From Escherichia coli (GTDB lineage: Bacteria > Pseudomonadota > Gammaproteobacteria > Enterobacterales > Enterobacteriaceae), in assembly GCF_003334355.1 (NCBI RefSeq), contig NZ_QOWP01000033.1: 40,343 bases of DNA; one strand, written 5' to 3'. The notes under the pieces are model-generated. The model worked only from the letters and a program-made list of their open reading frames with translations, was not told where the DNA came from and did not search any database. A program made the position numbers and the translations under genes. Each line of letters begins with the position of its first letter. Position 1 is the first letter of the stretch. Below, piece by piece: positions 10,203 to 32,974 of this stretch.

Positions 10203-11744
10203 ATGCCTTATCTACTTGAAATGAAGAACATTACCAAAACCTTCGGCAGTGTGAAGGCGATTGATAACGTCTGCTTGCGGTTGAATGCTGGCGAAATCGT
10301 CTCACTTTGTGGGGAAAATGGGTCTGGTAAATCAACGCTGATGAAAGTGCTGTGTGGTATTTATCCCCATGGCTCCTACGAAGGCGAAATTATTTTTGCG
10401 GGAGAAGAGATTCAGGCGAGTCACATCCGCGATACCGAACGCAAAGGTATCGCCATCATTCATCAGGAATTGGCCCTGGTGAAAGAATTGACCGTGCTGG
10501 AAAATATCTTCCTGGGTAACGAAATAACCCACAATGGCATTATGGATTATGACCTGATGACGCTACGCTGTCAGAAGCTGCTCGCACAGGTCAGTTTATC
10601 CATTTCACCTGATACCCGCGTTGGCGATTTAGGGCTTGGGCAACAACAACTGGTTGAAATTGCCAAGGCACTTAATAAACAGGTGCGCTTGTTAATTCTC
10701 GATGAACCGACAGCCTCATTAACTGAGCAGGAAACGTCGGTTTTACTGGATATTATTCGCGATCTACAACAGCACGGTATCGCCTGTATTTATATTTCGC
10801 ACAAACTCAACGAAGTCAAAGCGATTTCCGATACGATTTGCGTTATTCGCGACGGACAGCACATTGGTACGCGTGATGCTGCCGGAATGAGTGAAGACGA
10901 TATTATCACCATGATGGTCGGGCGAGAGTTAACCGCGCTTTACCCTAATGAACCACATACCACCGGAGATGAAATATTACGTATTGAACATCTGACGGCA
11001 TGGCATCCGGTTAATCGTCATATTAAACGAGTTAATGATGTCTCGTTTTCCCTGAAACGTGGCGAAATATTGGGTATTGCCGGACTCGTTGGTGCCGGAC
11101 GTACCGAGACCATTCAGTGCCTGTTTGGTGTGTGGCCCGGACAATGGGAAGGAAAAATTTATATTGATGGCAAACAGGTAGATATTCGTAACTGTCAGCA
11201 AGCCATCGCCCAGGGGATTGCGATGGTCCCCGAAGACAGAAAGCGCGACGGCATCGTTCCGGTAATGGCGGTTGGTAAAAATATTACCCTCGCCGCACTC
11301 AATAAATTTACCGGTGGCATTAGCCAGCTTGATGACGCGGCAGAGCAAAAATGTATTCTGGAATCAATCCAGCAACTCAAAGTTAAAACGTCGTCCCCCG
11401 ACCTTGCTATTGGACGTTTGAGCGGCGGCAATCAGCAAAAAGCGATCCTCGCTCGCTGTCTGTTACTTAACCCGCGCATTCTCATTCTTGATGAACCCAC
11501 CAGGGGTATCGATATTGGCGCGAAATACGAGATCTACAAATTAATTAACCAACTCGTCCAGCAGGGTATTGCCGTTATTGTCATCTCTTCCGAATTACCT
11601 GAAGTGCTCGGCCTTAGCGATCGTGTACTGGTGATGCATGAAGGGAAACTAAAAGCCAACCTGATAAATCATAACCTGACTCAGGAGCAGGTGATGGAAG
11701 CCGCATTGAGGAGCGAACATCATGTCGAAAAGCAATCCGTCTGA
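10203..11744 (+). CDS. xylG: D-xylose ABC transporter ATPase (duplicated ABC domains)
   Basis: 513 aa; Walker [10 protein letters not shown] and ABC signature LSGGNQQK visible, with two ATPase halves. Confidence 0.96.
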
Positions 11745-12903
11745 AGTGAAATTGGCCGTACCGACATCCGGTGGCTTCTCCGGGCTGAAATCACTGAATT
11801 TGCAGGTCTTCGTGATGATTGCAGCTATCATCGCAATCATGCTGTTCTTTACCTGGACCACCGATGGTGCCTACTTAAGCGCCCGTAACGTCTCCAACCT
11901 GTTACGCCAGACCGCGATTACCGGCATCCTCGCGGTAGGAATGGTGTTCGTCATAATTTCTGCTGAAATCGACCTTTCCGTCGGCTCAATGATGGGGCTA
12001 TTAGGTGGCGTCGCGGCGATTTGTGACGTCTGGTTAGGCTGGCCTTTGCCACTTACCATCATTGTGACGTTGGTTCTGGGACTGCTTCTCGGTGCCTGGA
12101 ACGGATGGTGGGTCGCGTACCGCAAAGTCCCTTCATTTATTGTCACCCTCGCGGGCATGTTGGCATTTCGCGGCATACTCATTGGCATCACCAACGGCAC
12201 GACTGTTTCCCCCACCAGCGCCGCGATGTCACAAATTGGGCAAAGCTATCTACCTGCCAGCACTGGCTTCATCATTGGCGCGCTTGGCTTAATGGCTTTT
12301 GTTGGTTGGCAATGGCGCGGAAGAATGCGCCGTCAGGCTTTGGGTTTGCAGTCTCCGGCCTCTACCGCAGTAGTCGGTCGCCAGGCTTTAACCGCTATCA
12401 TCGTATTAGGCGCAATCTGGCTGTTGAATGATTACCGTGGCGTTCCCACTCCTGTTCTGCTGCTGACGTTGCTGTTACTCGGCGGAATGTTTATGGCAAC
12501 GCGGACGGCATTTGGACGACGCATTTATGCCATCGGCGGCAATCTGGAAGCAGCACGTCTCTCCGGGATTAACGTTGAACGCACCAAACTTGCCGTGTTC
12601 GCGATTAACGGATTAATGGTAGCCATCGCCGGATTAATCCTCAGTTCTCGACTTGGCGCTGGTTCACCTTCTGCGGGGAATATCGCCGAGCTGGACGCAA
12701 TTGCAGCATGCGTGATTGGCGGCACCAGCCTGGCTGGCGGTGTCGGGAGCGTGGCTGGAGCGGTAATGGGGGCATTTATCATGGCTTCACTGGATAACGG
12801 CATGAGTATGATGGATGTACCGACCTTCTGGCAGTATATCGTTAAAGGTGCGATTCTGTTGCTGGCAGTATGGATGGACTCCGCAACCAAACGCCGTTCT
12901 TGA
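11722..12903 (+). CDS. xylH: D-xylose ABC transporter permease
   Basis: 393-aa hydrophobic ORF overlapping the xylG 3' end by 23 nt. Confidence 0.95.
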
Positions 12904-18964: not shown

Positions 18965-19064
18965 TGCCTGATGCGCTACGCTTATCAGGCCTACATGATT
19001 TCTGCAATATATTGAATTTGGAAGAATTTGTAGGCCGGATAAGGCGTTTACGCCGCATCTGGCA
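18965..19064. repeat. BIME (pair of inverted REP units)
   Basis: TGCCTGATGCGCTACGCTTATCAGGCCTAC at 18965-18994 and GTAGGCCGGATAAGGCGTTTACGCCGCATCTGGCA at 19030-19064, in opposite orientations. Confidence 0.7.
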
Positions 19065-28783: not shown

Positions 28784-28791
28784 TCCCTCAC

Positions 28792-28813
28792 GCCGGGGCT
28801 TCATCGCCCCGGC
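28792..28813 (+). terminator. Stem-loop at the 3' end of the yiaK-sgbE operon (no U-tract)
   Basis: GCCGGGGC (28792-28799) / GCCCCGGC (28806-28813) with a 6-nt loop, 9 nt after the sgbE stop; no following T-run, so intrinsic termination is uncertain. Confidence 0.3.
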
Positions 28814-29129
28814 ACTACGAATTGATATGTTCCTTGCTGTAACGCCGCTTCCACGCTGCTGGCGTTAAACCAGTATGTTTCTGAAAAATCTGCCGGAAAT
28901 AGCCAACGTCATTAAACCGTATTGCATGGAGCAGGCCGACAACGTCGAGTCACTGCATAACCTGTTGCTGCCCGCCGATGCGCCATTTACGACATTTGAA
29001 GGCAAGGGATTGTTCAGCCATAAGATCCTGATTCAGACGCCAGGTTCCCGGTATGAACAGAGCAATCCAGAGCAACAACCTTTGTGGCATTACGACGGAG
29101 CACCAGCCGCACCGACATCCACCGGTGAA

Positions 29130-29870
29130 TTAAAAACGCCAGCTCACCCCGGTGACAAAGGTAAAACTCTCATTACGATCAATCATCGGGCTGTCGGTAA
29201 TCTCTTCCGGCAGCTCGCTGTATCCTGCGCTCGCCATCAATACGACGTGCTCTCCTATCGGGTATTTTGCCGTCAGGCTGACATAGGGCACCCAGGCATC
29301 CTGCGCGGAATAACTTGCCAGACCGCTACGACGGGACTCACTCTCTGAAATGCCATAGTAATAGTCACTGAAATTCTCGTCATAATAGAGAACGCCCAGC
29401 GCAGGTGTCAGCGACAGACGACCTATCTGCATTTTGTGGAATACCGATAGCTCCCCCACCCAGCCGTTGCTGTTATCCAGAACGTCCGCAGCTGCAGAGG
29501 CTTTCACGGTTCCCCAACGCTCGTGGTGATACCAGGCACCCCCCGCCATAGCCGTACTATCACGCTTATCAAGCTGTTGCATGGCATAATCGTCATTATC
29601 GGTAGGGTCAAATTCCAGCGGCATCCAGGATGCGGTCAGGCTAAGTTCATTTTTTTCACTTTGCGACAGAATAAAACCTAACGTGGTCTGACGAACATAA
29701 AAAGTATCACCTTCATAACTAATCAGCGGAATTGCCTTCGTATTTTCATTATAACCGCGATAAGGCGATTCATTATAAGCCGCACCAGCACCAATGGATA
29801 ATTCAGAAGCAGTTGCGCTTGCCATAAAAGGCAACGCAAATAACGCCACAATATTGCGATTAATTAACAT
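29130..29870 (-). CDS. yiaT: Outer membrane protein, MipA/OmpV family
   Basis: 246 aa with signal peptide MLINRNIVALFALPFMASATA and C-terminal aromatic residue (…GVSWRF) typical of beta-barrel OMPs. Confidence 0.9.
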   Translation of the reverse strand: MLINRNIVALFALPFMASATASELSIGAGAAYNESPYRGYNENTKAIPLISYEGDTFYVRQTTLGFILSQSEKNELSLTASWMPLEFDPTDNDDYAMQQLDKRDSTAMAGGAWYHHERWGTVKASAAADVLDNSNGWVGELSVFHKMQIGRLSLTPALGVLYYDENFSDYYYGISESESRRSGLASYSAQDAWVPYVSLTAKYPIGEHVVLMASAGYSELPEEITDSPMIDRNESFTFVTGVSWRF

Positions 29871-29993
29871 GTCCGGTATTCCATTTTAAAATAAGATAAA
29901 AAAGAGTCGGCATAATAATGCTTACAATTTCTCCGGTGCAAGATTCATATTTATATAGTAATATATAAAATTATATATAATTGGGCTGTTGCG

Positions 29994-30968
29994 ATGACAA
30001 AATTACAACTTAAGTACCGGGAGTTAAAAATTATCTCGGTAATCGCTGCCAGTGAAAATATCAGCCATGCCGCGACTGTACTTGGCATCGCACAGGCCAA
30101 CGTCAGCAAATATCTTGCTGATTTTGAATCAAAAGTGGGTTTAAAAGTCTTTGACCGAACCACCCGGCAGCTGATGCTCACACCTTTTGGCACCGCGCTG
30201 TTACCGTACATCAACGACATGCTGGACAGAAACGAGCAACTTAATAATTTTATTGCAGATTATAAGCATGAGAAACGTGGTCGGGTCACCATCTACGCCC
30301 CAACCGGCATAATTACCTATTTATCCAAACATGTAATCGATAAAATTAAAGATATCGGTGATATCACCTTATCGCTAAAAACCTGCAATCTTGAGCGTAA
30401 TGCCTTTTATGAAGGCGTCGAATTTCCTGATGATTGTGATGTTTTAATCAGCTACGCTCCACCAAAAGATGAATCGCTGGTTGCCAGTTTTATTACCCAA
30501 TATGCCGTAACCGCTTATGCCAGCCAGCGCTATCTTGAGAAACATCCCATTAGCCGTCCTGACGAACTCGAACATCACTCCTGTATTTTGATCGACTCGA
30601 TGATGATCGACGACGCGAATATCTGGCGCTTCAACGTCGCCGGGAGTAAAGAGGTGCGGGATTATCGCGTGAAGGGAAATTACGTTTGCGACAACACGCA
30701 ATCTGCGCTGGAGCTGGCACGAAATCACCTGGGGATTGTGTTTGCGCCAGACAAAAGTGTGCAGAGCGACCTGCAAGACGGCACGCTGGTGCCCTGCTTT
30801 CAGCACCCGTATGAATGGTGGCTGGATCTGGTGGCTATCTTCCGTAAACGGGAATACCAGCCCTGGCGGGTCCAGTATGTGCTGGATGAAATGCTGCGTG
30901 AAATTCGCCACCAGCTTGCTCAGTCGCAGCAATTGCGGCCTGAACAAGCAGCGGAAAGCGAAGATTAA
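29994..30968 (+). CDS. yiaU: LysR-family transcriptional regulator
   Basis: 324 aa; N-terminal LysR HTH (…[33 protein letters not shown]…). Confidence 0.9.
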
Positions 30969-32101
30969 TGATCGAGATAAAGGTAATGCACCCAACTGGT
31001 CATGCGTAACAGCACTTTGCGCATCACCGAGACATGGCTGAAATGATCAGAGTAGACCGCCACCTGGGCGTAAATACCGTCTGGTAAAGCGCTCAAATCA
31101 GTGTGCTCATCCAGTTCAATGGTCGCGATAACGCCATCTGAACCCGGCGCTATGTTTAACGTCTGTAAGGTGCCGGTCGACTGATAAGCTCCGCCGGGAA
31201 CAGCTGGACTAATGGCTGCCAGCTTACCGCTGAACACTTTGCCTGGCAGAGCGTTAAATACCACTTCCGCATCATCGCCGGGAGCCAGGCGCAGCAAGGA
31301 GTTCTGACGGAACTGCGCCACGATTTGTCGTTTCTGATCGGGTATAAACACCATCACCGGACGTAGCGGCAGCGACGCGGCATAGGTACCCGGACGAATC
31401 AGCACCTGGGTCACATAACCATCGCTCGGCGCACGCACTATCGTCTGCTCAAGGTTATATTTTGCTTCCGCGAGCTGCGCTTTCAGGCTGGCGATTTGAG
31501 AATGTTCACCCAACACCAGGCTATCCAGCTGGCTCTGGATCTGTTTTTGTTCCGCCGCCGATGACTTTACGGAGGCTTCCTGCGCCAGATAATTTTGCCG
31601 CGCCACATCAATATCGCGTTCTGAAAACGGGTTTACTTTCGCCTGGCTGCCGCGTGCGTAACGCTGATACTCTTTAGCGAATTTATCCCGCGTGGCCTTT
31701 GCCTGCTGAGTATTCGCCGCCATCTCATCTAACTCTGCGCCCAACGCCCGCTGTTTATGTTCTGCGGTAACGATATCCGCCATCAGCCGATCCACCCGCG
31801 CCTGATAACGCGTCGGGTCCAGTCGAAATAGCACCTCACCTTTTTTAATCAGCGTATTTTTCTTATCCGTCACTTCGATCACCACGCCTGTCACCTGTGG
31901 GACAACAGGAATAGAAATAACCGCTTTTTGCGCTTTGAAGGTATACGGATGGTTATAGTTCATTAACAGAATTAAACCACTGACAATAAATATGCCACCC
32001 AGAGCCGCTGTGGGAATGGTCCATTTATTTACAGGAATTTTGAAGATCTTAAACATTGCCCATGCAAAAGCCACATAGGTCAAAACAATCAGTAAATCCA
32101 T
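30965..32101 (-). CDS. yiaV: Membrane fusion protein (HlyD/EmrA/AaeA family)
   Basis: 378 aa; N-terminal TM helix, coiled-coil segment, beta-barrel region; convergent with yiaU with overlapping stop codons. Confidence 0.9.
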
Positions 32102-32106
32102 AAGTA

Positions 32107-32430
32107 TTACTCGGCAGAAGAGGATTTGATGTCGGCGAGCTGTTTCTCCAGCCCGGCAATACGCTGTTGTAGTTGCACAACGGAGGAGTCATGGTTTTGC
32201 ATTCCCCATCCCCGCTCCGGGCGGTAAAGCGTGGCCCAAATCCACAAAAATGGCCAGATAACATGCAGCGTAAAAAGACTCACCCAACCAGCAACATGAA
32301 TGGCGTCGGCATGAGGATGATTACGTTTTTTAGCAATCAGGTAGGGAATATCATGTAAAATAATAATCCCATAGAATATCACCAGAAATACAAAAATAAG
32401 CACTCCCAGTGCAAAATAGTCCAGGAACAT
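32107..32430 (-). CDS. yiaW: Small inner membrane protein (DUF3302)
   Basis: ORF to 32460; likely start [10 protein letters not shown] giving 107 aa; 5 nt upstream of yiaV in the same orientation. Confidence 0.85.
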
Positions 32431-32860
32431 ATTTCCCTCAAAGAATATAAAAAAGAACAATTAACGCATATTATGAAATGCCATGATGCAGTGCAATTTC
32501 CTTATTTATATAACGACATATTGTTTTTTATATACTTTCTGAAATGTGCTGTCTGGTTTTTCAACAGGACGAGGTTTATCATATTGAAATAGTGGAACTA
32601 TTGGCCAAACTAATGAATAACTCCAGTAAAACATCCACAGTACAGATTAAGCGTATTAAACCTTCAATTATCTACCGTTTATTGCTGATTGGCCTCGGAT
32701 CACCAATGGTGATTTACGGCCTGGTTCGCCCGCTCACCATCGAAACGCGAGATTAAACTCCTGACAAAACACGCCCCAGAAACGCACTTCTGTTGGCGTA
32801 GTCTGGGTTATTGCGCACGTAGGTTTAAAACGTAAATTGTAACAACGTGCGCTTTGTTTA

Positions 32861-32944
32861 TGCCGGATGCGGCGTGTACGCCTTATCCGGCCTACGGTCA
32901 GGTTCCCGTAGGCATGATAAGACGCGTAAGCGTCGCATCAGGCA
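32861..32944. repeat. BIME (two REP units)
   Basis: TGCCGGATGCGGCGTGTACGCCTTATCCGGCCTAC at 32861-32895 and GTAGGCATGATAAGACGCGTAAGCGTCGCATCAGGCA at 32908-32944, downstream of aldB. Confidence 0.7.
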
Positions 32945-32974
32945 ATGAATACCCAATGCGACCAGCTTCTTATA

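Follow-up and report, generated by a model that had tools for sequence, protein, structure and literature searches.

In the AaeXAB, YdhIJK and MdtNOP systems, the gene of a small two-helix membrane protein stands directly upstream of the gene of a membrane-anchored membrane fusion protein (MFP), with the gene of a LysR regulator nearby, and known MFPs are typically encoded in one operon with their pump. A similar arrangement is found in the yiaT-yiaW interval of a 40,343-nt stretch of Escherichia coli chromosome (contig NZ_QOWP01000033.1 of assembly GCF_003334355.1), hereafter called the window. The 3.3-kb interval is 100% identical to NZ_AP027697.1 (strain PSS-12), whose RefSeq annotation has the same four genes, in agreement with the mechanical listing of open reading frames (ORFs); both bear out the gene positions of the initial annotation:

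29130-29870, minus strand: yiaT, 246 aa, outer-membrane protein of the MipA/OmpV family (Pfam MipA, PF06629)
29994-30968, plus strand: yiaU (LpsR), 324 aa, LysR-type regulator, divergent from yiaT and convergent with yiaV
30965-32101, minus strand: yiaV, 378 aa, EmrA-like MFP, starting 5 nt past the yiaW stop
32107-32430, minus strand: yiaW, 107 aa, DUF3302 inner-membrane protein

The initial annotation, made from the letters of the window alone, had seen here a parallel to the aaeR/aaeX-aaeA-aaeB efflux locus with an orphaned MFP, which would either borrow a pump encoded elsewhere or act differently. It was right that no efflux pump is encoded nearby: there is none among the genes of the 40-kb window, where the importers XylFGH and YiaMNO are the sole transporters. 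The word 'orphaned', however, is misleading, because a pump in cis is, as a rule, lacking throughout the family of DUF3302-MFP pairs to which yiaW and yiaV belong. This family-wide absence fits the option of acting differently better than the loss or borrowing of an AaeB-type pump. We propose, as a tentative reading that may or may not hold, that a TolC-type conduit lacking a canonical transporter has YiaW and YiaV as its inner-membrane part, and that the two form an autonomous and ancient two-gene module.

The parallel with aaeR-aaeXAB, for which the locus of E. coli K-12 was taken as reference, did not withstand comparison. The resemblance is one of layout only, because the comparisons of YiaW, of YiaV and of yiaU all fail. 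YiaV has 21% identity to AaeA, in which about 57 hairpin residues are missing, and it scores 63 bits on the NCBIfam AaeA model, for a cut-off of 400. A remote kinship of YiaW with AaeX (DUF1656) was considered and rejected: Pfam gives DUF3302 only, BLAST returns an E-value of 2.2, and an hhalign comparison of 36 DUF3302 with 22 AaeX/DUF1656 proteins results in a probability of 0.06%. YiaU reaches 34 bits on the NCBIfam AaeR model (cut-off 425); its targets differ (see below) and so does its orientation: aaeR and aaeXAB are transcribed away from each other, while yiaU runs away from yiaT and towards yiaV. Near DUF3302 genes, be it at the 78 enterobacterial sites or in the 57 other contexts described below, no homologue of AaeB or FUSC was found. 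The two kinds of operon coexist on one contig (L089) of a metagenome-assembled genome (MAG), where a FUSC-OEP-DUF1656-AaeA-like operon at 957-5851 (OEP, outer-membrane efflux protein) and a DUF3302-MFP-OEP-CPA arrangement at 8001-11933 are 2 kb apart; the FUSC/DUF1656 and DUF3302-MFP systems are therefore distinct.

The DUF3302-MFP pair as the conserved unit

That YiaV is a genuine MFP, as first annotated, is confirmed by its domains and its predicted fold. Pfam detects CusB_dom_1 (5e-15) and HlyD_D23 (2e-9), and the AlphaFold model (built on 37 family members; pLDDT 76) consists of N-terminal helices 2-19 and 28-48, barrel-sandwich strands, a long alpha-hairpin (97-152 and 161-218), a beta-barrel and a conserved C-terminal amphipathic helix (355-375). 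A Foldseek search with this model puts EmrA, from cryo-EM structures of EmrAB-TolC, at the top (E 3e-21, TM about 0.6), ahead of MacA, AcrA and MexA, the top hits spanning E-values from 3e-21 to 1e-11; EmrA is also the top sequence match in the PDB. Among NCBIfam models the best scores are those of EmrA/EmrK (113 bits) and MdtN (112 bits), all scores, including that on AaeA, being far under the curated cut-offs. With a cut-off of 391 bits for the EmrA/EmrK model, YiaV is therefore placed outside that subfamily. Hydropathy and model agree on the two hydrophobic N-terminal segments (2-19 and 28-48), and this two-helix anchor is invariant across the family, as compared with a single hydrophobic stretch in AaeA, the one canonical adaptor sequence inspected. 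Proteins of the YiaV type further share an invariant N-terminal motif, FK.FK.P.NKW...LGG...MNYNHP, a hairpin tip with R...G-S and a C-terminal helix with R..LLRM.SW; in YiaV, K18, N25, W27, R361 and R366 are among the invariant residues.

YiaW matches the full length of the DUF3302 model (PF11742; positions 1-77 of 77, E 2.2e-43), a domain for which the representative library has 883 clusters when grouped at 50% identity. NCBIfam assigned no family to it, and sequence and fold searches of the PDB gave chance-level matches only, with no relative. In its AlphaFold model (pLDDT 90), helices 2-35 and 41-68 pair into a hairpin, and a third, C-terminal helix spans 81-106. The turn of the hairpin is near-invariant in YiaW, R-x-H-P-H-x-D-A-I, with R36, H38, P39 and D42 as invariant residues; in the family the conserved motifs are HDIP..IA..R.HPH.DAI at the turn, and WP.LWIWA. 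Both genes are real and under strong selection: against the orthologues of Citrobacter and Pseudocitrobacter, dN/dS is 0.03-0.05 for yiaW and 0.02-0.045 for yiaV, i.e. 0.02-0.05 for the two taken together.

Two sets of loci were used to examine the surroundings of DUF3302 genes. The first is made of the best 80 loci of a profile search of genome contigs with a DUF3302 alignment, all of which are from Enterobacterales. The second, non-enteric set comprises 95 loci: 80 metagenomic contigs, from a metagenome scan started with a distant sequence, plus the contexts of distant representatives. In the Enterobacterales, all 72 DUF3302 genes for which a downstream gene is present (71 loci) are followed by a homologue of YiaV/YibH of 378-380 aa, mostly at a distance of 2-5 nt, and the two genes of a pair are translationally coupled. 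A YiaV-type MFP is likewise the next gene in 74 of the 77 non-enteric loci having at least 200 nt of downstream sequence. The flanks of the pair, on the other hand, differ completely from one lineage to another: they are yiaT-yiaU, mtlA, men or nuo genes in Erwinia, and others in Serratia, Yersinia, Buttiauxella and Pantoea. yiaT and yiaU adjoin it in no genera other than Escherichia, Citrobacter and Pseudocitrobacter. Pairs also reside on megaplasmids or chromids (Pantoea, Rhizobium/Sinorhizobium, Vibrio, Pseudoalteromonas, Aeromonas), the pump-less arrangement extends through Gamma- and Alphaproteobacteria, and one example comes from a Bacteroidota MAG (Reichenbachiella). The conserved unit is thus the DUF3302-MFP pair, and yiaT-yiaU are outside it. 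E. coli has a paralogous pair, yibI-yibH, located about 16 kb beyond yiaW and outside the window (L003:10503-12004), where it adjoins mtlA; it is present in 5407 of 5426 genomes.

On several sediment contigs (L095, L097, L098, L099, L118 and L121) the genes upstream on the same strand encode a reductive-dehalogenase-like protein, a protein about 92-95 aa long and a membrane protein resembling NosR/NapH/RnfG.

Neighbours of the pair and its possible function

Co-occurrence with pumps, which had been suggested as a check for the enterobacteria, was studied as gene neighbourhood. The query panel contained, as pumps, AaeB and a second FUSC protein, AcrB, MacB, an FtsX-type permease and EmrB, and, as other neighbours, TolC and four other OEPs, two CPA antiporters, DUF1656 and other MFPs. 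It was applied to genes -4 to +5 at 78 enterobacterial sites and, within 3-4 genes, to those 57 non-enteric loci whose context extends over 1.5 kb or more. No pump that could be ascribed to the module was found at the 78 sites, where FUSC, RND, OEP, CPA and FtsX genes were all absent within this range. The exceptions are one ABC match in Buttiauxella (L042), whose relative L036 has PotB/PotC-like permeases as neighbours, and one EmrB accompanied by its own MFP. The large membrane proteins encoded next to enteric pairs (PTS IIBC, a GPH symporter, the PotBC-like permeases and that EmrB) were considered as pumps and rejected. In the 57 non-enteric contexts FUSC, RND and DHA2-MFS genes are absent throughout; an ABC gene is seen once, on the opposite strand, and an FtsX-type permease in one organism.

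Outer-membrane channels show a different picture. A gene for a TolC-like OEP adjoins the pair in 9 of the 57 non-enteric loci, in several lineages within one operon, and in L086 (contig Ga0136269_1000008) the genes for OEP, DUF3302 protein and MFP are spaced by 2 and 1 nt between opposite-strand flanks, which makes a complete, pump-less three-gene operon. Linkage to an OEP goes with hairpin length: 11 of 21 complete short MFPs (300-345 aa) have it, but none of the 21 long ones, of 360 aa or more, and none of the 72 enteric pairs. A search for additional outer-membrane factors (OMFs) with family hidden Markov models built from these matches found none. It would fit these figures if long, EmrA-like hairpins reached the housekeeping TolC and short ones used a dedicated OMF. 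YiaT was considered as the outer-membrane partner and rejected: MipA-family proteins are small beta-barrels, not TolC-like tunnels, and yiaT adjoins the pair in one lineage only.

One may sketch how such a conduit would be built. YiaV would oligomerise into an EmrA-like periplasmic tube whose conserved hairpin tip docks to a TolC-type outer-membrane channel, which would be TolC or another distal OMF in E. coli and a co-encoded OMF in many other lineages. The inner-membrane base would be formed by YiaW together with the membrane hairpin and C-terminal helix of YiaV, in the place of a FUSC, MFS, RND or ABC pump, and the invariant His/Asp/Arg turn of YiaW would be the best candidate for a coupling or gating site. 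This turn is predicted to be cytoplasmic, because the HPH region is KKR-rich (positive-inside rule), and the termini of YiaW and the N-terminus of YiaV would then be periplasmic. On one contig (L123:1299-2510) a single ORF has a DUF3302 domain (residues 1-109) fused in frame to a YiaV-type MFP (116-401). The fusion is consistent with the predicted topology; no weight is given to it, since a frameshift of this gene near its 3' end makes a sequencing error likely.

Several points weigh against our reading. To our knowledge, no two-helix protein drives transport. The panel consisted of single-sequence phmmer queries, which very divergent transporters could escape, and many of the metagenomic contigs are short and lack phylogenetic independence. 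Co-encoded OMFs are confined to the short-hairpin subfamily and never occur with long-hairpin forms, including those of E. coli. CPA or SulP transporters, recorded in 7 of 57 contexts and in three loci, respectively, could be the real membrane partners. Finally, there is no directly tested efflux or drug phenotype of yiaV in the literature searched.

A bolder version is that DUF3302 protein, YiaV-type adaptor and TolC, or a dedicated OMF, make up a complete envelope-spanning export or vent system of a new type, in which a ring of small hairpins, from YiaW and from the membrane hairpin of the adaptor, replaces the transporter; gating or energy might come through the His/Asp/Arg turn, or the system might be coupled to CPA or SulP ion transporters. 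We regard this as possible, although rather unlikely. Only a little less probable, and still on the unlikely side, is that YiaV and YiaW are a spare or condition-specific adaptor set for a canonical pump encoded elsewhere, for instance an ABC exporter or one of EmrB, EmrY, MdtO, AaeB and YdhK. In its favour, YiaV is complete as an MFP and most resembles EmrA and MdtN, the partners of MFS or FUSC pumps, and components acting in trans are not unusual, TolC itself being encoded elsewhere in E. coli. Yet no pump is seen in about 130 contexts, whereas the normally distal OMF is often present in cis, and the constant partner of the MFP is DUF3302. The FUSC system of L089 has its own MFP and its own DUF1656 protein, and the co-operonic arrangement usual for MFPs and their pumps also speaks against a distal pump.

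Another possibility, which we consider improbable, is that the pair is an accessory of ion or osmotic homeostasis that functions with, or regulates, secondary ion transporters (CPA antiporters, SulP, mechanosensitive or K+ channels), perhaps as a scaffold across the periplasm or a gated vent. The recurrence of CPA, SulP and MscS-like neighbours is what raises the possible link. A gene for a CPA-family K+/Na+:H+ antiporter is by the pair in eight loci (L007, L089, L103, L104, L141, L142, L154 and L162), three times in the same-strand order DUF3302-MFP-OEP-CPA. A SulP gene is directly downstream in L121 and in Sinorhizobium (L176) and upstream in L134; Sinorhizobium also has genes for a K+ channel and a Ca2+/H+ exchanger nearby, and in Aeromonas (L178) an upstream, divergent gene encodes an MscS-like channel. 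The induction of yibI by urine would agree with such a role. However, most loci, including all 78 enterobacterial ones, are without such a neighbour, few lineages are involved, and CPA or SulP transporters are not known as partners of any MFP. As to a decayed aaeR-aaeXAB-type locus, left without its AaeB-like pump as non-functional or neofunctionalised remnants, it shows a superficial likeness in layout (LysR gene, small membrane protein, MFP) but is contradicted by the data: DUF1656 and DUF3302 have no relationship, YiaV falls far short of the AaeA cut-off, the LysR gene is convergent and has other targets, purifying selection is strong, and pump-less pairs extend to Alphaproteobacteria and to a Bacteroidota MAG.

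The genes yiaT, yiaU, yiaV and yiaW are known, annotated y-genes, while the family-level picture appears to be undescribed: in the literature searched there is no description of a pump-less autonomous DUF3302-adaptor module, of its frequent own OMF or of its unrelatedness to AaeX, and 'DUF3302' occurs in a single paper, as an annotation only. TCDB lists YiaV as 8.A.1.1.4, uncharacterised. Mild induction of yiaV in mixed biofilms has been described, and a V. vulnificus genomics paper, with reference to Hu and Coates 2005 and to Shimada 2022, ascribes to yiaV an influence on antimicrobial drug tolerance of E. coli (PMC10485832). A higher transformation efficiency upon yiaW deletion is reported second-hand (PMC12844161). 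The paralogue yibI is induced by urine, and its deletion lowers the fitness of uropathogenic E. coli, with a competitive index of 0.33 (PMC5404293). E. coli evolved within macrophages acquired insertions of the insertion sequence (IS) IS1 in yiaW, which did not explain the phenotype (PMC5495878). These are matched in some natural isolates (H6, H41 and H42), where IS1 or IS903 insertions interrupt yiaV or yibH.

E. coli thus has two such pairs, of which yibIH is near-universal, and all four genes are y-genes still without a function. If a self-sufficient, pump-less TolC-type conduit does exist, it would be a new class of tripartite envelope machine and would give a role to DUF3302, with its ~880 clusters; if the partner is instead a distal pump or an ion transporter, the efflux system would have an unusual split organisation.

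yiaT, yiaU and the variable site

YiaT matches Pfam MipA over its whole length (E 7.8e-52, model positions 1-221 of 221), and YiaU has the HTH_1 (PF00126, 1e-12) and LysR substrate-binding (PF03466, 5e-15) domains. yiaT is a neighbour specific to one lineage, found beside the pair at only 15 of the 78 DUF3302 sites in enterobacteria. In published ChIP-exo and RNA-seq data, deletion of yiaU (LpsR) raises the expression of yiaT (log2 2.8) and lowers that of the waa operon, and yiaV is absent from that paper (PMC9068703). The two genes would thus be a separate regulator-target pair that became adjacent to yiaVW in the Escherichia/Citrobacter lineage. The features surrounding the four genes are as follows:

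30965-30968: TTAA included in both convergent stop codons, yiaU TAA (plus strand) and yiaV TAA (minus strand)
29871-29993: yiaT-yiaU divergent intergenic region, AT-rich, with promoter-like hexamers (consensus matches only)
32431-32974: yiaW-aldB intergenic region, with a small ORF and REP-like palindromes
32544-32756, plus strand: small ORF between yiaW and aldB, a 48-aa hypothetical protein in RefSeq
28815-28916, minus strand: AraC-family pseudogene fragment (RefSeq annotation and comparison with other E. coli)
28920-29108, plus strand: pseudogene fragment of a hypothetical protein (same basis)

The region between yiaT and yiaU is likely the site where YiaU controls yiaT, the regulation itself being taken from the literature. 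A promoter for yiaWV is presumed to lie in the yiaW-aldB intergenic region, where a promoter-like match is found at 32607-32578, at consensus level only. A scan of the locus for terminators and promoters gave consensus-level matches only, within coding regions. REP-like palindromic repeats are found at 32850-32950, downstream of aldB.

The overlap of the yiaU and yiaV stop codons without an intervening terminator, noticed at the outset, was confirmed in the sequence (GAAGATTAATGATCG): the four bases TTAA are common to both TAA stops, which gives a 4-nt overlap of the ORFs, and therefore no intergenic terminator is possible. The two genes are closely spaced tail to tail in all 16 loci with yiaU: five have a distance of -4 nt, two of -7 nt and nine of +16 to +29 nt. 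The idea that this could cause transcriptional interference finds support in published data on overlapping transcription, since yiaU-yiaV is one of 165 convergent excludons present in at least 50% of MG1655 transcriptomes (PMC12288877). Through the 3' overlap yiaU and yiaV may therefore be mutually interfering transcription units.

The block as a whole is variable. The yiaT-yiaW interval is present in 3810 of 5426 complete E. coli genomes, i.e. yiaTUVW is absent from about 30% of them. It belongs to a larger variable interval between sgbE (araD) and aldB (28784-32974), which in some strains is reduced so that araD is directly by aldB, and which in others contains an AraC-MFS-GH127 island, either with HicAB or together with yiaTUVW. 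The pseudogene fragments at 28815-29108 mark the left edge of the variable yiaTUVW block and, judged by comparison, are remnants of this island, which is intact at the same site in other E. coli. Replacement of yiaTUVW can involve HicAB or Fic.

The remaining genes of the window are glyQS, the xyl genes, malS, avtA, yiaJ-O, lyxK-sgbHUE, aldB, yiaY, selAB, yibF and the start of an RHS element. Two Rfam matches were recorded elsewhere in the window, both on the minus strand. One, at 17-156, is to the sok antitoxin RNA (70 bits, for a gathering score of 59) and indicates a hok/sok-type locus at the window start, adjoining an IS150 copy. The other, at 18987-19029 between avtA and ysaA, is to the small RNA ES036 (CssrF; 46 bits, for a gathering score of 37.6).

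Comparison with known systems

The convergent genes yiaU and yiaV, which overlap at their stop codons, are listed in the MG1655 excludome, although in some Citrobacter species the two ORFs are 16-29 nt apart, without overlap. The nearest relative of the pair is yibI-yibH, with 78% (MFP) and 74% (DUF3302 protein) amino-acid identity to yiaV and yiaW, in the same order, with the same coupling and likewise pump-less; the difference is that yibIH, next to mtlA, is core, while yiaVW, linked to yiaTU, is accessory.

With EmrA of EmrAB-TolC (PDB 8ZAL/8ZAR), YiaV shares the membrane anchor, the lipoyl/barrel-sandwich domain, the long alpha-hairpin and the beta-barrel; a membrane-proximal domain was not detected in YiaV, and, as for EmrA, E. 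coli has no OMF gene alongside yiaV. It differs from EmrA in its two N-terminal hydrophobic helices and its conserved C-terminal helix, and in that the EmrB-like MFS pump is missing and a DUF3302 protein is the obligate partner instead. As to AaeXAB, YdhIJK and MdtNOP, yiaWV shares with them the order of small membrane protein and adaptor genes and the proximity of a LysR gene, whereas it has no FUSC pump, its DUF3302 protein is unrelated to DUF1656, and the regulator gene is convergent.

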